64,000 bases of DNA from Octopus vulgaris (lineage: Eukaryota), in contig OX597833.1 of NCBI GenBank assembly GCA_951406725.2, forward strand, positions 28,086,001 through 28,150,000, written 5' to 3'. The translations under genes were made by a program, and so were the position numbers. Numbering within the stretch: position 1 is the stretch's first letter; each line of letters begins with the position of its first letter. The notes under the pieces were generated by a model. The model did not search any database and had not been told where the DNA came from. It saw only the letters and a list, made by a program, of their open reading frames with translations. Shown piece after piece: positions 10,821 to 59,053 of the stretch.

Positions 10821-11147
10821 TATACATAAATATAAGAGAGTGGTCAAAATGTGGCTCACTCTTGCACTAGAAATAGATCCAATAGGTTTCAACCACAAAA
10901 TAAATGTTTCCCATGAAAGTCAGTACGATTGTTAGCTCAAACGAACAGGGCAAATAAAAATAACAAAAATACAGATTATTTTGCCAAAATAATCTGTATT
11001 TTTGTTATTTTTATTTGCCCTGTTCGTTTGAGCTAACAATCGTACTGACTTTCATGGGAAACATTTATTTTGTGGTTGAAACCTATTGGATCTATTTCTA
11101 GTGCAAGAGTGAGCCACATTTTGACCACTCTCTTATATTTATGTATA
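10821..11147. repeat. Perfect palindrome, 162-bp arms, 3-nt loop
   Basis: Arms read as exact reverse complements around GCC at 10983-10985. Confidence 0.9.
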
Positions 11148-13853: not shown

Positions 13854-13900
<47 letters not shown>

Positions 13901-14196
13901 ATAAGAGTAAATAATTTCTATAAAGGCTTTTAAAAAAACCCCAATTATTTACTGGTAGAATTCGGTATGTAAATATAGCCGATTACCGGCAGGAACTTCC
14001 GTAAAGTTCAGTATATATATTGTATATAAGAAAAAGGGACAGGCAAAACAGGTTGCTTGACCGCATACCGAAAAAATAGAAATAGCAGTCAAGAATGCTT
14101 ATTTCTATCAAAGTTGGACTCCGGGCATGACAGACCCTGTAATTCACATATGCAAAACAGAAGGAATAGATAACGAATACGAAGTCTGGCGGTTAT

Positions 14197-14307
14197 CTGT
14201 GAACATCATGTTTCTGGATTATAAACATATTGAATATATATTCCATATATTTTTGATATATATTTCATATATATTGCAAATATATTTCACATCCTTCTTC
14301 AGCACAG
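14197..14307 (-). ncRNA. Type I hammerhead, array unit 1
   Basis: CUGUG-CUGAAGA-AGGAU[AU-rich extended stem]AUCCA-GAAA-CAUGAUG-UU-CACAG. Confidence 0.75.
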
Positions 14308-14812
14308 CTTTCTATTGAAAAAGATTTATCGTAGATTTATCAAATGCTACGTACCTCAAACCTTCTGACCATGCGACATCAAAATATTTGAAGAAAGTGA
14401 GCAAAGGCTAAACCTACATAGACGTTTGAATTCATAAATCTTCCCTCCAAAATTTTGCCATGCGCACTACAGTTAGGTTGTCAAAGGGAGTGAAAAATCC
14501 AAATAGTAATATAATGATAAGAGTAAATAATTTCTATAAAGGCTTTTAAAAAAACCCCAATTATTTACTGGTAGAATTCGGTATGTAAATATAGCCGATT
14601 ACCGGCAGGAACTTCCGTAAAGTTCAGTATATATATTGTATATAAGAAAAAGGGACAGGCAAAACAGGTTGCTTGACCGCATACCGAAAAAATAGAAATA
14701 GCAGTCAAGAATGCTTATTTCTATCAAAGTTGGACTCCGGGCATGACAGACCCTGTAATTCACATATGCAAAACAGAAGGAATAGATAACGAATACGAAG
14801 TCTGGCGGTTAT

Positions 14813-14923
14813 CTGTGAACATCATGTTTCTGGATTATAAACATATTGAATATATATTCCATATATTTTTGATATATATTTCATATATATTGCAAATATA
14901 TTTCACATCCTTCTTCAGCACAG
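14813..14923 (-). ncRNA. Type I hammerhead, array unit 2
   Basis: Identical to unit 1 (+616). Confidence 0.75.
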
Positions 14924-15428
14924 CTTTCCATTGAAAAAGATTTATCGTAGATTTATCAAATGCTACGTACCTCAAACCTTCTGACCATGCGACATCAAAA
15001 TATTTGAAGAAAGTGAGCAAAGGCTAAACCTACATAGACGTTTGAATTCATAAATCTTCCCTCCAAAATTTTGCCATGCGCACTACAGTTAGGTTGTCAA
15101 AGGGAGTGAAAAATCCAAATAGTAATATAATGATAAGAGTAAATAATTTCTATAAAGGCTTTTAAAAAAACCCCAATTATTTACTGGTAGAATTCGGTAT
15201 GTAAATATAGCCGATTACCGGCAGGAACTTCCGTAAAGTTCAGTATATATATTGTATATAAGAAAAAGGGACAGGCAAAACAGGTTGCTTGACCGCATAC
15301 CGAAAAAATAGAAATAGCAGTCAAGAATGCTTATTTCTATCAAAGTTGGACTCCGGGCATGACAGACCCTGTAATTCACATATGCAAAACAGAAGGAATA
15401 GATAACGAATACGAAGTCTGGCGGTTAT

Positions 15429-15539
15429 CTGTGAACATCATGTTTCTGGATTATAAACATATTGAATATATATTCCATATATTTTTGATATATATTTCAT
15501 ATATATTGCAAATATATTTCACATCCTTCTTCAGCACAG
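15429..15539 (-). ncRNA. Type I hammerhead, array unit 3
   Basis: Identical to unit 1 (+1232). Confidence 0.75.
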
Positions 15540-16077
15540 CTTTCCATTGAAAAAGATTTATCGTAGATTTATCAAATGCTACGTACCTCAAACCTTCTGA
15601 CCATGCGACATCAAAATATTTGAAGAAAGTGAGCAAAGGCTAAACCTACATAGACGTTTGAATTCATAAATCTTCCCTCCAAAATTTTGCCATGCGCACT
15701 ACAGTTAGGTTGTCAAAGGGAGTGAAAAATCCAAATAGTAATATAATGATAAGAGTAAATAATTTCTATAAAGGCTTTTAAAAAAACCCCAATTATTTAC
15801 TGGTAGAATTCGGTATGTAAATATAGCCGATTACCGGCAGGAACTTCCGTAAAGTTCAGTATATATATTGTATATAAGAAAAAGGGACAGGCAAAACAGG
15901 TTGCTTGACCGCATACCGAAAAAATAGAAATAGCAGTCAAGAATGCTTATTTCTATCAAAGTTGGACTCCGGGCATGACAGACCCTGTAATTCACATATG
16001 CAAAACAGAAGGAATAGATAACGAATACGAACAACCTGTGTTGCCTGTCCCTTTTTCTTATATATATATATATATAT

Positions 16078-16937
16078 AGGTTTCGGTGATAAACTGTCGT
16101 CTAAATTCCGCAAATATGAAAATAACACAGACATCTCATTTTAACAGATATATTTTCCAAAATTGCATGAAAATATCTTGAAATACTTGAAAAGTAAATT
16201 TATTCAATAAATTTGCCATTGGCTTCAACTACGGCCTCCATGCGACTTCGGAATCTGCCACAATTCTTCTGGGCGGCCTTCTTGTTTAAGTTGCTGAATG
16301 CTACTATAACCCTTGCCTTCAATTCATCTTTGTTGTTACAAGGAATTTTGTTGGACTCTTGCTCAACTGCGCCCCACACATAATAATCAATGAAGTTGCA
16401 GTCTGCGGAGTTAGGTGACCAGATGTTAGGGGTGATGTGGTCGCAGAAATTGTCTCACAGCCATGACTGAGTTCTCCTGCTTGTGTGGCATGATGCAGAG
16501 TCCTGTTGCCAGATATAGGGTCTTCCAGCAGCCACCCTCTTGACCCAGGGCAGCACTACCTCCTCCAGGCACTTAATGTAGGTCTCCGTGTTGGGTCTGC
16601 GGACGTGTGTGAAGATGAATGGAGGCATAACGTCGCCATTACTAGTGAACAATCCAAACAACATGATGTTGACTGGATGTTTGATTTTTATACGCTCGGT
16701 ACATGTCCTCAGATTGACACCTAAAAACTTTGAAATGTTCGTATTGGAACACCAAGCAGTACAGCATATCGTTTCCGAATTTCTAGCAGGGTGAATTGCG
16801 TCATGGTGCTGTTCTTCTCACAGACGGTGTCCAACTGACCCTACTATACTGTTTAGTCGACAAAATCAAAAACAAACAATGCGCATGAGTGAAATTAAAG
16901 ATATAAAATGGCGACAATTTACCCATCGCAGTCTCTG
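16078..16937 (-). mobile_element. Internally deleted Tc1/mariner-superfamily element (DD37D/maT-like)
   Basis: RPYIWQQDSASCHTS and WSPNSADCNFIDYYVWG motifs; degenerate TIRs (TAAACTGTCG / CGACAATTTA). Confidence 0.75.
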
Positions 16938-17283: not shown

Positions 17284-17287
<4 letters not shown>

Positions 17288-17630
17288 AATAATAAATCTC
17301 TGAACGAGATATAAACAGTAACTGCTCTATAACGTAAGGGGGGATCAGCCATCTGAATGTGGCTAGGGACAGGGCGGGGTGGTAGGGGTGTTACTGATGC
17401 TTTTAGCCCCAGGCGATCATCGACGTCACCAGAAGGACCGACACCATCTCGGTGTCCTTGTTAACCTGTAAAGGGAGATCATCCTCCCTCGAAGATACGA
17501 ATACTACATACGGACCGGTTTCGAGGTCATTGCCTCTTATCAACGTATGGTAAGCACCGTTATGGCTGATCCCCCTTACGTTATAGAGCAGTTACTGTTT
17601 ATATCTCGTTCAGAGATTTATTATTGTTTT
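17284..17630. mobile_element. Short pLTR-like element with ~68-bp inverted ends enclosing a hammerhead
   Basis: 17284-17352 is inverted at approximately 17562-17628; preceded by (TA)n. Confidence 0.7.
17507..17549 (-). ncRNA. Minimal type I hammerhead with U3-A8 core variant
   Basis: CAUACG-UUGAUAA-GAGG(CAAUGA)CCUC-GAAA-CCGG-UC-CGUAUG. Confidence 0.75.
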
Positions 17631-17646
17631 CGGACGGTTTTTCTAC

Positions 17647-17886
17647 AAAGTCTAAAAGTTGGAAACCGGTACGAAGATGTCCTTCATGATAAAATTATTT
17701 TAGCATTTTCTACCCTGACTTATTTTCCTTATACAAATCAACTCGCATGTTACTTTTCTACCTTCTAGAAGGTAGAAAAGTAACATGCGAGTTGATTTGT
17801 ATAAGGAAAATAAGACAGGGTAGAAAATGCTAAAATAATTTTATCATGAAGGACATCTTCGTACCGGTTTCCCACCTTTAGACTTT
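17647..17886. repeat. Near-perfect loopless palindrome, 120-bp arms; diverged third copy at approximately 17930-18013
   Basis: Centre TTCTAGAA at 17766/17767; arms contain GAAACCGGTA. Confidence 0.9.
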
Positions 17887-18010
17887 TTCAACTAAGGGTA
17901 AAATAAGAAAAACAATTAAATTAGTTGAAAAAGTCTAAAAGACGGAAACTGGTATTAATATGTACTTCGTGATACAAATTATTTTAGCATTTTCTACCCA
18001 GTCTTATTTT

Positions 18011-18128: not shown

Positions 18129-18177
18129 GCTTCTACAGGACTAGAACTGTTTCATTCAAGAGAAATCTTCAGGAAGC
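18129..18177 (-). ncRNA. Type I hammerhead (mirror copy in palindrome 18111-18254)
   Basis: Reverse complement of 18188-18236; 5-bp helix I. Confidence 0.7.
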
Positions 18178-18183
18178 ATCTTC

Positions 18184-18240
18184 AGGAGCTTCCTGAAGAT
18201 TTCTCTTGAATGAAACAGTTCTAGTCCTGTAGAAGCTCCT
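18184..18240 (+). ncRNA. Type I hammerhead
   Basis: AGGAGCUUC-CUGAAGA-U-UUC(UCUU)GAA-U-GAAA-CAG(UUCUAGUC)CUG-UA-GAAGCUCCU. 9-bp helix I, GUA site. Confidence 0.8.
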
Positions 18241-25710: not shown

Positions 25711-25960
25711 AACGAGACATGCAACATAAAGAATATTCCCCTTCTTCAGTTGTCCCTGTTTCATCTACTCCTTGCCTTCGAACCGTGGAGTAGATGAGAC
25801 AGGGACAACTGAAGAAGGGGAATGTTCTTTATGTTGCATGTCTCGTTTCTCTGTTTGTCTTTTTCGTTGTTCAAAAAAAGTTCGTTTTCTATGTTTTTGT
25901 TTTTATGTTTTCGTTTCTCATTGTGTTCAACGTTAATTTGATGTCCTATACCCATATATA
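25711..25960 (+). mobile_element. Family A copy with 5' fold-back (25711-25849), interrupted by mariner and continuing at approximately 27249-27330
   Basis: ~60-bp inverted arms; family A sequence resumes immediately after the mariner. Confidence 0.75.
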
Positions 25961-27248
25961 CGAGGGGCGTTCAATAAGTAATGCCCCTGACCCACTTCCC
26001 ATAGCAGTAGAGCAACGAAACTTGGCACAGTTATTAGTCTTTTTCTACATAGGAACCACCCAGAGTTACGCATTTCTCCCATCGTTTGATGCAGCTCTGA
26101 AGACCGTTTCTGTAGAAGACAGCTTGGTCCTCCAGCCACGACGTGACTTCAGAAATCAAGGCTGCATCATCTGGGAAACGCTTTCCTTTCAAAAACAACT
26201 TCATGGCTGGGAAGAGGTGAAAATCAGAAGGTGCAAGGTCAGAAGAGTAGGGGGATGGGGGAGGAGTTCATAGCCGCACGCCTGTGCTTCTGATTTGGCG
26301 ACACGCGAGTTGTGGACCAGAGCGTTGTCCTGCAGGAGGAGGATGCCTTTGCTGATCTTGCCCCGCCTCTTGATTTTGATAGCTTCTCTTAATTTCCTCA
26401 AAAGTGAAGCATAATAGGCTCCTGTAATTGTGGCACCATTTGCCAGGAAATCTGTCATCACTACTCCGTCCTGGTCCCAGAAGACTGTGAGCATGACCTT
26501 GCCAGCGGAGGGCTGCACCCTTGCCTTCTTTGGAGGAGGGGAGTCACGGTGCTTCCACTGCATTGACTGGGCTTTGGTCTCTGGATCATAGTGATGGACC
26601 CAGGTTTCATCCTGTGTAATCAGTCTTTTGAAAAATTTTGACTCATCTTCTTTGCACATCCCCAAATTCATCCTCGAGCAATCGACGCGTTCTTGCTTCT
26701 GGAAAGGCGTGAGCAACCTGGGAATCCATCTGGCAGACACCTTTTGCATATGCAAATGGTCATGAATGATAGTTTCCACAGACCCGGTACTAATATTGAC
26801 CTCATGGGCTATTTCGCGAATAGTTATGCGTCGATCTTCCAAAATGGCAGCCTCAACTTGACGGACAGATGCCTCATCAATGGCAGAAGGAGGCGACCAG
26901 ATCTGGGAGCTGTTTCCACCGAGTTCCAACCATGTTTGAATTCACGATGCCAGCGTTTTACAAGGTCATATGATGGGGCATTATCACAATAAGTTACTTT
27001 CATTTCATCAAAAGTCTCCCGTGGTGTGCGTCCTTTCAAATACAAAAACCGGATCACTGCTCGACATTCAACAGACTCCATTTCACACGTGACTCATTTC
27101 AAACACCTGTAAATCAGAAACCACAATTAGTTTAGAGCTGTAATTTGCCACTTACTCTATAGAGATATAAGTAATTGCACACGCAAAATTTCAGCTAGAT
27201 CGAACAACTTCAAGTGGATCAGGGGCATTACTTATTGAACGCCCCTCG
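25961..27248 (-). mobile_element. Full-length mariner (DD34D) transposon, transposase frameshifted
   Basis: ~37-bp TIRs CGAGGGGCGTTCAATAAGTAATGCCCCTGA, TA target duplication; WIPRLL, TQDETW, LLQDNA motifs. Confidence 0.95.
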
Positions 27249-45438: not shown

Positions 45439-48358
45439 TAGTTGCCAATTTAGCATATTTTATGCTAGATCTAGCATTCTTTTTCAGCATTTTGCAGAAA
45501 ATTTTTGAATCTAGCATTTAGCGGGGAAAATAGCAGGTTTTAAATTTTATTTAGCATTTTTCTCTGATCGTGACATTTCCACAATAGCTATTCTTTTTAC
45601 TTCTTTTTCCTCCTTTTCTACTTTCGCTAATGTATCTTATAGCCAAATTTTAGTACTATCGGCTATTGTTGAATTTTTCTTTCACTTTCTTGAAACTTCA
45701 AATGAAAGTTTATCAAAAGGAAATTTATCAAGTTATGAACTTTTCCAGTCCCTCTTCCCCCATCCCCCCTCTTGGATACAGAGTGGTGCTTGGGGTGGGG
45801 GGATAATTCATGTCAGCATCTGAACTCACTACACAATAATGGAAATATGTTGCAAAGAATGAAAGCATGGAAATACGTTCTAACAATGTTTTATTCTGTT
45901 GTGATGAGTTTTTATCCTGACAGGTTGACTGATTTACTTTCAGTTTGACTGTTTTAAAATAGACCTGTGTTTTTTCATGCTTGTTTTGGATTATATATCT
46001 TGTATAGAAGTACAGGGGTGGCGGGGGTTTTCCCCCTTTATATTTCTACTTACTTTTTTTTCAACTATTGTAGTTATATTTGTGGTTTTACCAATAGATA
46101 TTAAATGTAAGATTGGAAGCGAAATATGATGTTTCCAGGTTTATATCAGAACATAGTTTTAGGATTCCTGCAGATTTTACTTTTCCATTTATAAGTTGGC
46201 CACCCTGCATCCTGATTCAGTATTCTTCACCTCAAGAATTTGTAAGCAGCAAACTTAAGAATTGTTAATGACGAATGAAAGAATTGTTAGCAGCAAACTG
46301 ATAAGTCGTGTTTTCAATTTTATATTTTTATTAATCATTCAATTTATTTTCTTGCTTCCCACTACATTATAATGAGCAAAGAAAAATCAAAGTTGTGCCA
46401 GCAAAAATTCCAAAAGGAATGGCTTAAGATGCCAGCGTTTACTAGTGACCAATCTAAAGCACATTGCAGATATTGTAGATGTAATATGTTGGCAAAATAT
46501 TCCCTTTTAATAAGCCACTGTGAAGCAAAGAAACATAAAGCATCAACTCCACATCAAATGATTCTGCTTACCAATTCTATTGAAACCAAAAATGATAAGA
46601 CATCTATGCTTGAAGCAAATTTAGCAATGTTTATTTGTTGCCATTCATCATTTAATAGCTGTGATCACTTAATAGAGTTATGTAAGAATTATATGTCTGA
46701 TAGTGATATTATATCAAAAGTGAAGTTGCTTCGTACAAAATGTGCAAATATTGTGAGAAATGTTCCAGCTCCATATTTTGATGGAGATTTGATTTCTGAT
46801 ATAGGAGATAGAAAATTTAGCCTGTTATTAGATGAATCCAATGATATATTGATGAGCAAGTTGTTAGGAATTGTTATCATATATTACAGTGGTACATACA
46901 TACAGTATGGTATCTTTAGAAACGTGATGCAGATGGCATTGTAGATGCCTTAAAAACTGAATTAGTGAAAAAGAAATTAGATATAAAAAAAATTTACTGG
47001 CAATAGGAACCGACAATGCTAGAGTAATGATAGGAGTCAACAATGGTGTTTTCCAGAAATTAAATGAAGTTCCATCATTGCTTCTATTTAGATGTGTATG
47101 TCATTCTTTACAGTTGGCAGTATCCCACACTTGTGCTGAATGCTTGCCCATAAATTTAGAATTTTTAGAATCCGAAACCTATAAATGGTCCTCTCATTCT
47201 TCAACAAGACAAAGTGCCTACAAACAACTTTACCTTGCTATCAATGATAAAGAGCCTTTGAAGATCATGAATTCTTGTACGACTAGGTGGCTGTCAATAG
47301 AACCAGCGGTAAATAGAATTTTAAGCCAATGGTTTGAATTGCAAACTCTCTTCCAAACTACAACCACAAAAGAAAAATACTTTACAGCACAAACGTTACA
47401 TGAAATGTTTTGTGATTCTAGGAATGAACTTTACCTTTTATTTTTGCATCCAATTTTAAAACATGTTCAGGAAGTGAATAAACTGTTTGAATCAAACACT
47501 GTCGACAAAACAAAATTACTTGAATATCTTTCAAATTTGATCAAATTTGTTGCTAATATGACAGTGTTGCCAACATGTAGAATTGATCCTCTTGATCCAG
47601 ATGCTTCTATTGAAAAATTTCTGGATCCTAAACCAAATCTAAGCTACAGGTTCGAGAGAAAAATAGCACAAATGATTATCAAGAAGCCACCGAAGAAAAT
47701 AATATTCGCAAAAGAGCACAATTTTTACTCTGCCTTTATAAAGAGCTCAAGCACCGTTTGCCAAGAAATATTAATATACTGAGGAATATCAAATGTTTTT
47801 CAGTAGAGAATATTTTGAAGCATTTCAAAGAGCCAATTTTACCTGTCTTAGAAGCAATGCATTTAAATGAAGAAAAAATTGCTTCAATTGAAATTCAGTT
47901 TAATAGCATTCATTTAGTTAAATGGACAAATACGTCTAATACTGAGGCATTCTGGCTGGAAGTCTTGAACTATAAAGATGCTACTGGAGGAAATCCTTTT
48001 AGAGATGTTGCAAATTTTGCCATTAATCTATTGACATTGCCAACCTCAGATGCAGAAGTTGAACGGTTGCTCAGTAGTATGGGTGTAATCAAATCAAAAT
48101 TGAAAAACAAAACGCATCTTCCTATGCTTAGATCAATACTGTCTATAAAATATGGCCTGAAAAGATATGGGAAATGTTGCAAAAACTTTGATATTCCAAA
48201 ACCCATACTTAACAAGATTGGGACCTTGAATGTATACAGAAGTCAAAATAAAAATGTAAATAAAAATTAAGCTTTTTAATATAATTAGTTTTTAGCAGCG
48301 CACTTTACGGTAATAACAATCAACTTCTGTCATTCAAATGCAAAATGGCTGGCAACTA
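45439..48358 (+). mobile_element. hAT transposon with frameshifted transposase (46372-48270)
   Basis: TIR TAGTTGCCA/TGGCAACTA; N-terminal CxxC..H zinc finger, FSLLLDES, GTDNA, CVCHSLQL, TRWLS and hATC LPTSDAEVER motifs. TSD not clear. Confidence 0.85.
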
Positions 48359-48542: not shown

Positions 48543-49833
48543 CGAGGGACGTTCAATAAGTAATGCCTCTGACCCACTTGCAGTTATTTGATCTAGCTGA
48601 AATTTTGCATGTGCAATCATTTATATCTCTATAGAGCAAGTGGCAAATTACAGCTCTGAAATAATTGTGGTTTCTGATTTACAGGTGTTTGAACTGAGTC
48701 AAGTGTGAAATGGGGCCTGTTGAATGTCGAGCAGTGATCCGGTTTTTGTATTTGAAAGGACGCACACCACGGGAGACTTTTGATGAAATGAAAGTAACTT
48801 ATGGTAATGATGCCCCATCATATGACCTTGTAAAACGCTGGCATCGTGAATTCAAACATGGTCGGAACTCTGTGGAAACAGCTTCCAGATCTGGTCGCCC
48901 CCTTCTGCCATTGATGAGGCATCTGTCCGTCAAGTTGAGGCTGCCATTTTGGAAGATCGACGCATAATTATTCGCCAAATAGCCCATGAGGTCAAGATTA
49001 GTACCGGGTCTATGGAAACTATCATTCATGACCATTTGCATATGCAAAAGGTGTCTGCCAGATGGATTCCCAGGTTGCTCACGCCTTTCCAGAAGCAAGA
49101 ACGCGTCGAGTGCTCGAGGGTAAATTTGGAGATGTGCCAAGAAGATGAGTCAAAATTTTTCAAAAGACTGATTACACAGGATGAAACCTGGGTCCATCAC
49201 GATGATCCAGAGACCAAAGCCCAGTCAATGCAGTGGAAGCACCGTGACTCACCCCCTCCAAAGAAGGCAAGGGTGCAGCCCTTCGCTGGCAAGGTCATGC
49301 TCACAGTCTTCTGGGACCAGGACGGAGTAGTGATGACAGATTTCCTGGCAAAGGGTACCACAATTGCAGGAGCCTATTATGCTTCACTTTTGAGGAAATT
49401 AACAGAAGTTATCAAAATCAAGAAGCGGGGCAAGATCAGCAAAGGCATCCTCCTCCTGCAGGACAACGCTCCGGTCCACAACTCGCTTGTCGCCAGATCA
49501 GAAGCACAGGCGTATGGCTATGAACTCCTCCCCATCACCCCTACCTTCCTGACCTTGCATCCTCTGATTTTCACCTCTTCCCAATCATGAAGTTGTTTTT
49601 GAAAGGAAAGCGTTTCTCAGATGATGCAGCCTTGATTTCTGAAGTCACGTTGAGGTTGGAGGACCAAGCTGGGTTCTTCTACAAAAACGGTCTCCAGAGC
49701 CGCATCAAACGATGGGAGAAATGCGTAACTCTGGGTGGTTCCTATGTAGAAAAAGACTAATAACTGTGCCAAGTTTCGTTGCTCTACTGCTATGGGAAGT
49801 GGGTCAAGGGCATTACTTATTGAACGCCCCTCG
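48543..49833 (+). mobile_element. Full-length mariner (DD34D), second copy, frameshifted
   Basis: Same TIRs and transposase as 25961-27248; inserted in (TA)n. Confidence 0.95.
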
Positions 49834-50155: not shown

Positions 50156-52081
50156 TCAGGTTCTTCGGGAAGATATTGAAGAGCTGTGGGCTCTTGTCCT
50201 ACATCTTGATGGCAAGTTTGGAGTCCTAGGCACCACGCAGTGGCGCCCAGTTCTGGCATTTGCGTAACTCTCGATGCCAAAGTTCAGGACACTTCCCTCC
50301 AGGATCTTCCAGATGTATATTATGGCATATCTTTCCCGCCTACGCTCCAGGGAATATAATTTTAATTTCCTGAGTCTTTCCCAGTAGCTTACATTCTGCA
50401 TAGAGGCTATCTTCTTCGTGTAGCTACGTTGGATTGCCTCGAGCTCTGTGATGAACTTGACACTGGATGGTGACCATAACTGAGAGCAGTAGTCAAAGTG
50501 GCTTAGGACAAGTGTCCTCCAGAGGACCATCATGGTTTCTTGTTCTCTTGTTCTAAAGGTTCTGAGGATCCATCCGGCCAGTCGTCTACATTTCATTGCC
50601 AATTTAGCAACATGTACACGAAAGGTCGCGTCATCACTCATGTAAATACCTAGGTCACGCACTGATTGTGCCTCTGGGATTGCTATTCCTCCGGGTCCAG
50701 TGTATTCATTGGGTATTGCATTTAGTTTTGCATGCTGATAGTATAGAGCTTGAAACTTTTCAGCATTGAACTGCATGCTATTCTTTTCGGCCCACTTGTA
50801 TATTTTGTCTAGCTCACATTGCAGGTGTTTAGTGTCCTCAGGGTTCTGTATTGCCTGTGAAACTTTTGTATCATCTGCATAACTTGTGATCGTGGCTCTC
50901 TGCGTGGCTGAGGGCATGTCTGAGAGGGCCATTATGAACAGTAGTGGTCCCAGAACAGTGCCCTGCGGAACACCGCTCACTATTTGCGTGTTAATGGAAG
51001 TGGCCCCATTGGCCACTACCACCTGACTTCTATCTTTCAGAAAGTCATGAAGCCATTCTCCCAGTTTTCCAACTATGTTGAGATCACGCAGTTTGTGACA
51101 TATCATTCCATGATCGACTTTATCAAAGGCCTTTGCAAAGTCGAGATATATGACTTCCACATTTGAGTGGTTGAGCAGCCGTTTCAGCACCCAGTCATAG
51201 TGTTGTAGGAGCTGAGTTAAACAGCTTCTCCCTGGTCGGAAACCATGTTGGGTGTCGGGCAGCAAGTCATTTTCTTCAAGGAAGGTGATCAGCTTCCTTC
51301 TGACTATTCGTTCCATGACCTTGCTGATGTGTGAGGTCAGAGAGATAGGTCTATAGTTCTTGGCTTCCGCTCTGCTACCTCCTTTATGAATGGGGCATAT
51401 TTTACCTTCCTTCAGTTTTCTTGGAAGTTTGCCAGCTGCAAGGAAGCTCTGAAAGAGGAACTGCAGTGGTCTTGCTAGGACTCTCTTACATGCTTTTAGG
51501 AGGATTGCCGGGAATCCATCGGGGCCAGTAGCTGAGTCTGTTTTCATTTCATCTATAGCCTTGATTACATCGTCTTCCTTTATATCGATGTAATCTATCG
51601 TCGCCGCCTCTGATTTTATATCTGCAGTGGTAAAAAAGTCAGTTGGATTGGTGATTTGGAGATGCCCAAGGGGTGGAGTGAAAACACTCTTGAATTGCTC
51701 ATTCAGTATTTCACTTACCCTCATTGGTTTTCCTGTAAGTGTGCCATCCTTTTCGAGGAGTGGCCCTATTCTACAGTGCACCGTAGCTGTTTCTTTGGCA
51801 TACCTGTAGAAAGCTCTGGGGTTAGATTTTATGTTGTCTATAGCCCAGGCTTCTTTGTCTGCTCTTTCCTTTTCATGGGAGAGTTTCAGACATTTTTCGA
51901 TTTCCAACAGTTTTATTTTTAGGCGGGACTTTTCACTGCTTTCAATCTGTTTGTTTAGGCGATTTGAAAATTTTGTACGCCGTCTCATTAGAATTTTCCT
52001 CTCTCTGGGGATTTTGTTCTTGTGTACAGTGGCCTTTCTCTCTGGGACACATTTGTAGCATATGGCTTGCATTACAGACAT
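50156..52081 (-). CDS. CR1-clade LINE ORF2 reverse transcriptase, 5'-truncated
   Basis: 641-aa open frame: [63 protein letters not shown]. Confidence 0.9.
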
Positions 52082-52082
52082 G

Positions 52083-52187
<105 letters not shown>

Positions 52188-54823: not shown

Positions 54824-57050
54824 CTAAGCTGTTGATATTGTCTTCAAAAAATATAATCTTTCATTTTTAGTCTTATCTCGTAATAACTCGTCCCTATGTG
54901 CTGATAATTTCTTCTTTCTTTGCTCTCTACGATAATTTGTCCGTTGTCTATGACATTGTTTCTTCAAACCCCGTTTGCCTAATTCTTCTCTTTCCATACA
55001 TCTCTCTGAATCAAAACTTCGCCATTCGTGGTGCACCCGCCATTTCCCACCCCCACCACCAATACCGGATATCTCTCTATATATTTCTCAATCTATACCG
55101 GATATCCCTTCTCCCACCACCATTATGGGTGCCTATTCCTCGAACCCCTCCTCCTCAATACGCTATTTCACTATGAATTACCCCTGCTTATCTTCCCCTC
55201 CTTCCAGTCCCCCCCCCCTCACGTTATATCCTACGTTTAATTTTGTCTAGAACCTGCCACCACCCCTACCTGTCATCGTTTCTCCTAACACCCCTCCCCA
55301 CTGGTGCTCCCCCCCTATATTACCTGCACTCTCCCCCCATTCTCTCTTCTCCCTGCTGGAACCCCCAGCCCATCTCTAGAATATCCATGTTTCTGCTACA
55401 CTGCTTAAACCACTTGCTCAATGACCATAATGCTTGCTTAGAATACTGCTAACACCTGCCTACGGCAGGGGCCAGAACCTTAACATGCCTAAATGCTTGA
55501 ATGTTGTCAGGTCGGAAGAGAGATCAGACGAAAAATGCCTAAAAAACAATCACCACCACCACAACAACCCTCTTCTTTTCAGGCGCTAAATTGCACCCCT
55601 CCTCCCCACATCTCCTTCCCAGTTTTCAGAGTTGGCACTGTGAGATTGTAGAGATGCTTGAGAGAAGATGGGTTGATGTATGCTGCATACAAGAGGTAAG
55701 GTGGAGAGGTGCATCAGCTAGGGTCCTCACAGGCAAGGCACATAGGTATAAAAGTCTTCTGGCAAGGTAACATGGATGGGGTAGGGGTGTAGGCATTCTC
55801 CTTGCGGAGAAATGGGTGGATAAGGTCATAGAGGTTGTCAGGGTTTGCGATAGAGTGCTTAAGCTCAGGTTAGTCCTACAGAGTGGCACAGCTACGATTA
55901 TCTCCGCCTATGCCCCACATGTGGGGCTACCAAATGATTAGAAGGACCACTTTTATGATACCCTTCTACAGGCTACCTCAAAGACTAGTGGCAAGGACCT
56001 CATCTTTGTGGGTGGAGACTTTAATGGGCATGTTGGGCGGGAATCGAGTATCTTCACTGGGGTACACAGTGGCCATGGTATTGGCACCAGAAATGATGAG
56101 GGAACTAGACTACTGGAATTCTGTGATGCATATAACCTTTTAATCTGCAACACTAACTTCAGGAAGCCTGACTGTCACCTAATAACTTATCAGTCAGGAG
56201 ACTCCGCAAGCCAAATAGACTTCATCCTCACCAGACAGCGGGATGCAGGGTCGCTCTTAAATACAAAGACCCTCCTGGGTGAAGAGTGTATCCATTCAGC
56301 ATAGGCTAATCATTAGTGACTTTAGGCCTGAGGCCAGAAGGACTCCAAGAAACAGACCAATCCAGAAAAGAAGGATTTGGAAGCTAAAGAACCCTTCACA
56401 TGGTCAGAGATTTAGGGACATCCTCATCAAGAAATTTGATGAGAGGGAGGAGGAGCTACAGACGTCGGACATAGAAGGTAGCTGGAAATTCCTACAGGAC
56501 AGCTTGCTGAGTGCCACAGACCAAGTCTGTGGATGGTGCAAAGTCCCTTCCAGACCCAGAGTTACGTGGTGGTGGAATAGTGCAGTAGACAAAGCAATTA
56601 GTGCAAAGAAACAGGCCTGGAGAGCCTGGGGGAATGGGGGTAGCAGGGAACCGTACCAAGTGGCCAAAAGGGAGGCCGGGTGGCAGGTATACATAGCCAA
56701 AGATATAGCAGAAAAGAAGAAGTTTGCCAATGTCCAGCGACGTGAGGACCAAAGAACTGAGGTATTTTGGATTACTAGACAGTGTGTGAGAGAAAATAGT
56801 GATGTTACAGGAGAGAAATGTGTCCGCATGGATGATAGGGCACTTGCTTTTAATGTTGGTGAAAAGAAAGAGGCTTGGGGAAGCCATTATGAAAGACTGC
56901 AGAATGTGGAGAATGATGGGAGGAAGAGAGCCTGCCAAATGTTGACCCAGTAGAGGGACCAGCTATCCAAATAGACAGCTCCCTTGTAGTTAAGGCAATT
57001 AAGGGTATGAAACCAGGTAAAGCCCCGGCCCATCAGGTATCACTGCTGAG

Positions 57051-58640
57051 ATGCTTAAAACAGCTGGTTATGTGGGCTATGGCCTAGTCACCTGTATTGT
57101 AAACCAGGTAGTTCATAATGGAGTCATACCCAATGACTGGCATAGCAGCACCATAGTCAACTGCTACAAGGGTAAGGGTGATGCTCTAGATATAAATAAC
57201 TACAGGGGTATTAAACTGTTGGATCAGGTGATGAAGGTCACAGAGAGGGTCATAACCCATCTCATTAGGGAGAGGATTTGCTTAGATGAAATGCAGTTAA
57301 GTTTTGTGCCGGGTAGAAGCACCACTGATGCTATATTCCTGGTCCGACAACTGCAGGAGAAGTACCTAGCTAAAGATAAACCCCTCTACATAGCTTTTGT
57401 GGACTTGGAGAAAGCCTTTGACAGGGTTCCCTTATCCCTTATCTGGTGGTCGATGCGGAAACTGGAGATTGACGAATGGCTAATAAGGGCTGTACAGGCC
57501 CTATACAGAGAGGCTGTCAGCAAGGTTAGGATTGGCAACAAATATAGTGAAGAATTCCGGGTAGAAGTAGGTGTACACCAAGGCTCAGCCCTCAGTCCCC
57601 TTTTATTCATCATAGTCCTCCAGGCAATAACAGAGGAATTCAAAACAGGTTGCCCCTGGGAGCTCCTCTATGCTGATGACCTGGCTCTCATAGCAGAATC
57701 ACTACCAGAACTAGAAAAGAAATTTTGGGTGTGGAAACAAGGGTTAGAATCAAAGGGCCTTAGAGTAAATGTAGCGAAGACCAAAGTTATAGTAAGCAGA
57801 AAGGCGAACTCAGCACTCACCCCATCTGGCAGGTGGCCCTGCTCGAGCTGTAGGAAAGGTGTAGGTAGAAACTCCATAAGATGCACCCAGTGTAAGCTAT
57901 GGACGCATAAGAGGTGCAGCAACATCAAAGGGAAATTAACTGATAAGATAGCTTTCATGTGTGGCAGATGCACAGGGACAATAGACACCACAAATACTCA
58001 GAAAACAGATTCCATCACACTCCAGGGGGAGAAACTAGAAGTAGTTGATAGTTTCTGCTACCTGGGTGACCAAGTTAGTAGTGGAGGTGGATGCTCAGAG
58101 AGTGTCACCACTAGATTACGAATAGCCTGGGCAAAGTTTATAAAGCTCCTACCCCTACTGGCAACAAAGGGTCTCTCACTCAGAGTGAAAGGTAGATTGT
58201 ATGATGCATGTGTGCGAACTGCCATGCTTCACGGCAGTGAAACATGGGCTGTGACTGCAGAGGACATGCGTAGACTTGAAAGAAATGAAGCTAGCATGAT
58301 TCGCTGGATGTGTAATGTCAGTGTGAATGCACGACAGAGTGTAAGCACCCTGAGAGAAATGCTAGGCATAAGAAGCATCAGATGCGGTATGCAAGAGCGA
58401 GGCTTGCGATGGTATGGTCATGTACTGTGGATGGATGAGGAGAGATGTGTGAAGAAGTGCCGCTCCCAAACAGTTGAAGGAATCAAGGGGAGAGGTAGAC
58501 CCAGGAAGACATGGGATGAGGTAGTCAAGCATGACCTCAGAGCGTTGGGCCTCACTGAGGCAATGGCGAAGGGCCGAGATCTCTGGAGATGTGCTGTGAC
58601 TACAAAGACCCGGGATGCTTCCGGCACCAGTTCTGCATAG
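57051..58640 (+). CDS. RTE reverse transcriptase domain with embedded PHD-like zinc finger (open part of a broken ORF)
   Basis: FVDLEKAFDRV, GVHQGSALSPLLF, YADD, then CSSC..CTQC..H..C..CGRC. Confidence 0.85.
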   Translation: MLKTAGYVGYGLVTCIVNQVVHNGVIPNDWHSSTIVNCYKGKGDALDINNYRGIKLLDQVMKVTERVITHLIRERICLDEMQLSFVPGRSTTDAIFLVRQLQEKYLAKDKPLYIAFVDLEKAFDRVPLSLIWWSMRKLEIDEWLIRAVQALYREAVSKVRIGNKYSEEFRVEVGVHQGSALSPLLFIIVLQAITEEFKTGCPWELLYADDLALIAESLPELEKKFWVWKQGLESKGLRVNVAKTKVIVSRKANSALTPSGRWPCSSCRKGVGRNSIRCTQCKLWTHKRCSNIKGKLTDKIAFMCGRCTGTIDTTNTQKTDSITLQGEKLEVVDSFCYLGDQVSSGGGCSESVTTRLRIAWAKFIKLLPLLATKGLSLRVKGRLYDACVRTAMLHGSETWAVTAEDMRRLERNEASMIRWMCNVSVNARQSVSTLREMLGIRSIRCGMQERGLRWYGHVLWMDEERCVKKCRSQTVEGIKGRGRPRKTWDEVVKHDLRALGLTEAMAKGRDLWRCAVTTKTRDASGTSSA

Positions 58641-58764
58641 CCCCTGCCCATTCAAAGTACCTTGGATCCCGGAACATCTCGCTGTGCTTGAGTAGACTTG
58701 TTGAGTCAAGTGCATGTACATGAACATCGAAACAAATATCAATGGAAATAGTAGATGTGATACC

Positions 58765-59053
58765 TGTGCCAGTGGTACATAAAAAGCACCATCCGAACGT
58801 GGCCATTGCCAGCGCCGCCTCAACTGGCTTCTGTGCCGGTGGCACATAAAAAGCACCATCTGAACGTGGCCGATGCCAGCACCGCCCCAACTGGCTTCTG
58901 TGCCGGTGGCACATAAAAAGCACCATCCGAACGTGGCCGATGCCAGTGCCGCCTTGGCTGGCTTCCGTGCCAGTGGCACGTTAAAAGCACCAACCGACCG
59001 TGTCCGATGCCAGACCCCCCTGGCACCTGTGCAGGTGGCACGTAAAAAGCACC
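58765..59053 (+). repeat. 67-bp minisatellite (~4.4 units) in RTE 3' UTR
   Basis: Units start at 58765, 58832, 58899, 58966 and 59028. Confidence 0.9.

Follow-up and report, generated by a model that had tools for sequence, protein, structure and literature searches.

The closest described relatives of the repeat analysed here are the animal non-LTR retrozymes, non-coding tandem repeats with a type I hammerhead ribozyme in each unit. According to the portion of their description consulted (PMC7229834), they are known in a mollusc too, with Penelope-like elements (PLEs) proposed as their helpers. A study in Xenopus considers non-LTR retrozymes as non-autonomous PLE derivatives, with units of 51-972 bp (Li, Clavereau, Pollet 2026, 10.64898/2026.07.22.740005); its main text nowhere mentions a mollusc or an octopus. 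Both the enzyme which spreads animal retrozymes and the use of an RNA circle as template have been the subject of proposals since 2020. Among the papers listed by our literature searches none describes an octopus retrozyme (Repbase/Dfam and preprint supplements may contain the family), and in the publications consulted on retrozymes and PLEs we saw no retrozyme ends mapped to PLE start sites.

PLE insertions may be partly tandem, have a tail at one of their ends and include a truncated copy in inverted orientation, and non-autonomous PLE-type tandem elements are known in Chlamydomonas, both as given in the consulted sections of PMC8557442. In PLE biochemistry, for which an in vitro assay exists, two internal reverse transcriptase (RT) starts define the tail, both target strands are nicked and the target is AT-rich (PMC11167929).

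The work presented here concerns a tandem array in the window, that is, the whole stretch of 64,000 nt of Octopus vulgaris DNA analysed, and its relatives in the genome. Like animal non-LTR retrozymes, the repeat is non-coding and tandem, carries one type I hammerhead per unit, has a GC content of 33% and a strongly self-paired monomer, and shares its genome with PLEs. It differs in the length of its unit (616-644 bp compared to 150-450 bp), in being known from genome sequence alone, and in its fixed start sites, inverted arms and TA targeting, which do not appear in the consulted portion of the retrozyme description (PMC7229834). Co-occurrence with PLEs is common to it and the Xenopus retrozymes, and its unit length falls inside their range; in Xenopus the link to PLEs is made by pLTR homology and local tandem growth is favoured, whereas in octopus the link lies in the insertion anatomy and no homologous pLTR was found (10.64898/2026.07.22.740005). 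It is very probable that the array is a PLE-mobilised hammerhead retroelement. The more detailed reading, that of a recent insertion into (TA)n copied by a PLE RT/endonuclease from a self-cleaved, probably circular RNA of 616 nt, is the one we favour, with somewhat better than even confidence. One genome thus combines a young family with exact starts, a structure that is a candidate for RT binding, and PLE ORFs which are themselves young and intact, and this makes the mechanism directly testable.

A hammerhead repeat flanked by (TA)n

The tandem array covers 2133 nt, equivalent to 3.46 units of 616 bp as judged by identity at period 616, and is arranged as follows:

13858-13897, no strand: (TA)20 target repeat, left flank, read from the sequence
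13899-16031, minus strand: main arm of 3.46 tandem units; RNA sense is minus, and the left end is cDNA start site A
13899-14514, 14515-15130, 15131-15746 and 15747-16031, minus strand: unit borders in the main arm
16032-16064, plus strand: second arm in inverted orientation, covering unit positions 125-157 and begun on the opposite strand at site B
16059-16078, no strand: (TA)n target repeat, right flank

The preliminary description had reported 3.46 near-identical units with one substitution, no credible ORF, (TA)n on both flanks and a 33-bp inverted copy at the right end, all of which is confirmed. The units are 99.8-100% identical, their sole internal difference being 14313 T versus 14929 C. 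The longest stop-to-stop frame inside the 616-bp unit (GC 0.33) is 85 aa, with neither an RT nor a GIY-YIG ORF, and the 33-bp inverted end repeats unit positions 125-157 as their reverse complement, apart from one substitution. The remark that such a unit is unusually long for a retrozyme does not survive comparison with the published range of 51-972 bp (10.64898/2026.07.22.740005).

Each full unit had been proposed to carry a type I hammerhead on its minus strand. A type I descriptor finds the motif in 3/3 full units and in 0/2000 dinucleotide shuffles of the unit, and the isolated 122-nt hammerhead region adopts the hammerhead fold without constraints, in agreement with that proposal. The motif reads CUGUG-CUGAAGA-A-GGAU...AUCC-A-GAAA-C-AUGAU-GUU/CACAG:

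14197-14307, minus strand: type I hammerhead 1, predicted cut 14202/14201; helix I CUGUG/CACAG, core CUGAAGA, GUU site
14813-14923, minus strand: type I hammerhead 2, predicted cut 14818/14817
15429-15539, minus strand: type I hammerhead 3, predicted cut 15434/15433

There is an extra A on either side of the helix II base, the helix II domain comprises 83 nt, and helix III is 3 bp long and palindromic (duplex -6.4 kcal/mol), so that cleavage as a dimer is plausible. The octopus motif shares with PLE minimal hammerheads an additional nucleotide following A9, as well as the G10.1-C11.1 pair; a second extra A before G12, the 83-nt helix II domain and the 3-bp helix III set it apart from these, as far as the consulted part of their description goes (PMC4209133). 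Rfam gives no hammerhead family at E<=10 for 13899-14700, nor one for the window, probably because helix II is 83 nt long. In context, an upstream hairpin competes and has an advantage in stability of 1-3.5 kcal/mol, and helix I has a probability of 0.02-0.5; this modelled competition, the GUU site and the A/A at the helix II base could together make for a slow ribozyme. In vitro, 8/9 Xenopus retrozymes failed to cleave and 1/9 cleaved (10.64898/2026.07.22.740005). The circular minus strand folds with z=-5.2 and is 65% paired, and the plus strand folds with z=-2.8 (25 shuffles).

A plant LTR retrozyme, which has a type III hammerhead in its LTRs and a 4-bp target-site duplication, is ruled out by the type I topology, the tandem units and the TA target. 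The type I descriptor gives 2 further matches in the 64-kb window outside the array. Hammerhead-like descriptor matches occur at 521-449 (minus) and 21820 (plus), the former being close to a TA run and resembling a recurrent old PLE end. An unrelated small PLE-type insert (17284-17629) lies beside (TA)n and has perfect inverted arms of 59 nt; its minus strand carries a minimal hammerhead of type I with helix I CAUACG/CGUAUG, core UUGAUAA and helix II GAGG/CCUC.

Genomic copies and insertion anatomy

The assembly searched is 2.8 Gb in size, and about 30 of its contigs are of chromosome scale. With the unit as query there are 1372 first-look candidates, the best 40 of which were scored and give 164 matches on many chromosomes; full-unit matches in this best-scoring set are 97-100% identical. 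An 18-mer from the hammerhead has 463 exact copies genome-wide (control 0), and its first 94 matches represent 49 loci, which extrapolates to a total of ~240 loci. Because this 18-mer occurs 463 times genome-wide, the array is not a local satellite. A genome-wide search for dispersed copies of variable unit number, as had been suggested, thus finds them, from monomers to multimers. The earlier view of a retrozyme-like non-autonomous element holds as well: the dispersed copies are non-coding and have kept the hammerhead, core and helix I being intact in 140/148 genomic segments. Variants common within the family occur at 0/50 functional positions compared to 20/398 elsewhere, a difference which is not significant (p=0.15). 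Full units, 90 of them taken from 52 loci, group by length at 613-621 and 633-644 bp, and the mean unit distance is 0.6% within loci and 1.3% between loci. The family is very young, with ~1% divergence. Two loci (L013 and L066) contain a mixture of two subfamilies.

Low-depth contigs of 4 public sequencing runs, presumed to be RNA, cover the unit and 3 of them, one labelled as another species, show the unit-to-unit joint; among the differences listed for these contigs, none lies in the hammerhead core. These joints, the shuffling result and the hundreds of dispersed copies with fixed ends all argue against an ordinary satellite or an assembly duplication with a chance hammerhead look-alike, a reading which would fit the near identity of the local units and the silence of Rfam but which we consider largely refuted and very improbable. 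In one run (X5), low-depth contigs on window positions 14862-15068 show clustered plus-strand A>G changes at 26 places, likely due to ADAR hyper-editing of a plus-strand transcript folded on the inverted arms. A single degenerate copy of a sister family (L203, C30:3653043) reaches a contig depth of 158 in the same run, above that of the family itself, and is perhaps located inside a host transcript.

The anatomy of insertions was established at 73 loci (74 insertions), of which 40 belong to the 49 hammerhead loci of contigs 1-2 and the other 33 were picked by best score. Most are two-armed (53), 18 are one-armed and 3 complex. Arms start at site A (unit position ~1) in 62 cases and at a second site, B (~114-132), in 33 cases:

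14012-14030, minus strand: second of the recurrent element ends, start site B, at about 114-132 of the unit

The distance from A to B, or tail, is about 113 nt. Two-armed insertions fall into A+B (24), A+other (26), B+other (2) and B+B (1), and many of the "other" arms open with several bases from site B or from a different UA-rich spot before they hop. The 33-bp inverted end of the window array is a short B arm. Orientation switches head to head in 54/55 cases, the RNA 3′ ends thus facing outward, with a junction overlap of 0-4 nt in 36/54 head-to-head junctions. In the contig 1-2 set, half of the A arms (17/34) exceed one unit. (TA)n adjoins both ends in 45/74 insertions, one end in 25/74 and no end in 4/74; a target-site duplication is unreadable within (TA)n.

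Since two fixed starts, a TA target and inverted arms match the published PLE pattern, the repeat can be considered as mobilised in the manner of a PLE. The Penelope-type ends foreseen in the preliminary description are recognizable in the genomic copies as fixed sites A and B, a tail, 5′ truncation, an inverted second arm and a TA target at 70/74 insertions. Its suggestion that the tandem units are rolling-circle-like cDNA made by a Penelope RT fares less uniformly: the ends agree with it, but rolling-circle copying is not the sole source of tandem units as long arrays also duplicate locally, with higher-order duplication in L042, L122 and L065. In Poseidon, a PLE of Anolis (PMC11167929), two internal RT starts likewise define the tail, both strands are nicked and extended and the target is AT-rich. 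Poseidon is autonomous, with a tail of 30-40 bp and priming without homology, whereas the octopus tail is about 113 nt and the UA-rich starts may pair with the TA target. PLEs of the Hydra and Neptune clades, in the part of PMC8557442 consulted, likewise show a (TA)n target, tandem or inverted insertions, a tail at one end and a hammerhead near the 3′ end; unlike these, the octopus repeat has no ORF and no detectable similarity to their ends. Naiad is another PLE type with a (TA)n microsatellite as target. The long two-armed insertions bear on the origin of the tandem and inverted structures of PLEs.

Circle, multimer or cut monomer as template

Genome-wide, 480 copies of the 18-mer ending at the cut are found, 472 of that ending 4 nt past it and 463 of that ending 13 nt past it, or about 98% of cDNA passes crossing the cut site. 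The template is therefore a circle or an uncut multimer. A cDNA started at A would stop at unit position 303 on a linear cut monomer. There are 15 matches to a pattern which stops at 303 and is followed by a foreign base, 6 of them unrelated. Another 4 continue past the cut with a scar there, two of them without the last two RNA bases before the cut. The remaining 5, in 4 loci, end exactly at the cut, one locus doing so twice with a jump back of 50 nt. These 4 loci compare with 0.84 expected (P=0.011), a value weakened by the uneven spread of cDNA stops, three positions having 3 stops each in the sample. An earlier count of ends at the cut (1/124) came from loci biased by the cut-spanning pattern or the full-unit score. 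L251 has a cDNA stop at 303-305. Such ends and scars are a hint that cleaved RNA may exist in vivo, mostly closed or bridged.

An alternative is PLE insertion from an uncleaved tandem read-through transcript, in which the hammerhead would be slow or a passenger and unit number would be restored, once the element is inserted, by unequal crossing-over. It draws on the anole PLE, for which hammerhead cleavage is dispensable for insertion in vitro (PMC11167929), on the higher-order patterns of local duplication described above, and on the existence of possible masters, arrays of 7-13 units, the fixed variant of L122 also being present in L124 and L131. Both rare variants of the window array also lie within what would be the single-copy part of a 1.46-unit founder. 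Ends and scars at the exact cut speak against such a transcript, as do the variants and junctions of individual loci. There are 21 locus-private variants (private among about a third of loci) fixed in all segments of their locus, and in L034, L062 and L065 private variants are fixed over both multimeric arms. Private differences are common to opposite arms in 14/48 cases, and common variants are concordant between arms in 45/48. None of the 55 inversion junctions is copied from another, with 3 near-matches in 1485 pairs; read-through of short source loci is disfavoured because such copying would give repeated junctions. Fixed private variants, concordance of arms and uncopied junctions would thus favour a monomer bottleneck, while local duplication can equally fix private variants and the mixed subfamilies of L013 and L066 also count against it. 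On balance we regard the read-through transcript as a doubtful source, and an RNA circle as probably the main template.

Copying from a circle would proceed as follows. A tandem RNA of minus-strand sense would be transcribed and the hammerhead would cut after GUU, likely best as a dimer, a prediction for which the four genomic ends at the cut provide a hint. The 616-nt monomers would then be ligated to circles, as in known retrozymes. A PLE protein would bind a 3′ module of the RNA and nick both strands of the TA repeat. In keeping with the pattern of ends, cDNA would begin internally, at A for one strand and at B for the other, and the RT would travel round the template and beyond the cut over 0.1-4 units. 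Both cDNAs would then meet head to head via 0-4-nt microhomology, as the junction pattern indicates, and some arrays would grow afterwards by local duplication, as in the long arrays.

Sister families, 3′ RNA module and candidate helpers

A motif from unit positions 166-190 has 4550 genomic matches (control 0). The 20 of these which were opened are all outside the 616-bp family; most are short pieces, truncated or two-armed, which end at A and B as in that family. Tandem copies with a unit of about 530-590 bp are also present, and one sister family of 555 bp has 118 marker matches. Sister hammerheads keep the core and have a different helix I, at least 6 helix I sequences being represented (CUGUG/CACAG, AUAGCG/CGCUAU, CCCAUG/CAUGGG, UUUGAG/CUCAGG and others), and the positions flanking helix II are A/A, C/A, A/C or G-C across families. 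These hammerheads were chosen by a descriptor which demands pairing, leaving out the degenerate copies L153, L154 and L203, and helix I pairs were tabulated by anchor; a MAFFT alignment of the hammerheads misregistered helix III. Retention of the core in divergent sister families is a further point against an uncleaved read-through transcript with a passenger hammerhead.

The 3′ 200 nt of 8 sequences have three elements in common: a 9-bp helix around site B, a hairpin of small size and, ahead of site A, a terminal hairpin. In the first unit of the window array these correspond to:

13899-14100, minus strand: conserved 3′ RNA module, present in each unit and common to sister families; candidate RT-binding/initiation element
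13907-13952, minus strand: terminal hairpin within the module, formed by 13943-13952 and 13907-13916 and lying immediately upstream of site A on the RNA
13961-14072, minus strand: 9-bp long-range helix, 14064-14072 with 13961-13969, bracketing site B

Within this structure 94% of cells are paired, compared to 34-54% when it is slid, 9/24 pairs are changed on both sides and covariation is 0.32, compared to 0.16 for shuffled sequences and <=0.06 when slid, the structure and its scores deriving from one and the same alignment of 8 sequences. Both sides are changed at 6/10 pairs of the terminal hairpin across families, and the 9-bp helix is paired in 8/8 sequences with G-U changes only. From this model we infer that the module may serve as an element for RT binding and initiation.

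The unit might itself be the pLTR of an unsampled autonomous PLE and the arrays its 5′-truncated or recombined remains. Frog retrozymes have been traced to pLTRs (10.64898/2026.07.22.740005), and with 20 of the 4550 motif matches opened there is room for such an element. Against this, the unit is joined to a PLE ORF in 0/73 loci of the family and 0/33 sister loci, arms pass from unit into unit, and an apparent junction (L209) is a chance neighbour, which makes the pLTR a quite unlikely origin. For the preferred reading, that of a non-autonomous repeat copied by a PLE enzyme, two PLE families are candidate helpers:

L101-L117, e.g. C6:133343000-133350500: copies of PLE-A (Neptune-like)
L161-L190, e.g. 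C2:149283377-149287000: copies of PLE-B (Hydra clade)

PLE-A is young and intact, with a 781-aa frame including RT, a CX4CxxC linker and GIY-YIG, and an upstream frame of 479 aa. It is ~4.7 kb long, with a U3-A8 minimal hammerhead, a TA target and ends 40 nt apart. PLE-B has a young intact frame of 727 aa whose DKT, CxCX5C, CxxC and CxH motifs are those of the Hydra clade description. It is very abundant (150 matches at 98-100% identity among 21716 candidates) and has long inverted arms, a TA target, ends about 75 nt apart and a hammerhead which is likewise A/A-flanked at helix II. Outward-facing arm pairs number 17 in the 150 PLE-B matches and 1 in the GIY-YIG search behind PLE-A, and 3/3 fetched PLE-B pairs have one distal and one proximal end. 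The ends of PLE-A and PLE-B resemble the unit only at the level of shuffled sequences, and a profile search finds nothing. Nor is the module present in PLE terminal repeats at 50 GIY-YIG loci, 30 Hydra loci, 12 further loci and 20 + 15 old Hydra-like loci (two families). Judged on behaviour alone, the odds that the young Hydra-clade PLE-B is the helper are about even; a Neptune-type PLE and a PLE family unseen here are each rather improbable.

A broader proposal, which we advance tentatively and consider unlikely as a whole, is that a cephalopod retrozyme superfamily of thousands of copies hijacks a Hydra-clade PLE via a covarying, independently maintained 3′ RNA structure and not via pLTR identity, a dimeric RT/endonuclease priming both strands of a TA repeat on one ribozyme-made circle, at two programmed sites, and rolling out two multimeric cDNAs. 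If true, hammerhead cleavage in vivo and retrotransposition from a doubly primed circular template would both have left their first direct footprints in the genome.

Five loci (L097, L078, L200, L161 and L209) were considered as unions of the module with a PLE and rejected, the two being joined by chance or being distinct elements side by side in a TA run common to both. In L097, L161 and L200, retrozyme pieces occupy a TA run beside a PLE end, elements piling up at shared targets.

The window also contains long near-perfect hairpins of MITE-like or fold-back type (17618-17915, 10880-11090, 18137-18228 and 25732-25826), which give spurious Rfam microRNA matches. Fragments of Mariner-type transposase and LINE RT are located at 26204-26941, 48850-49587, 50159-52084 and 57021-58637. 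The region 46291-48267, without a match in Pfam, looks like a broken hAT-like transposase, and a 67-bp minisatellite is present in 4.4 copies at 58764-59053.
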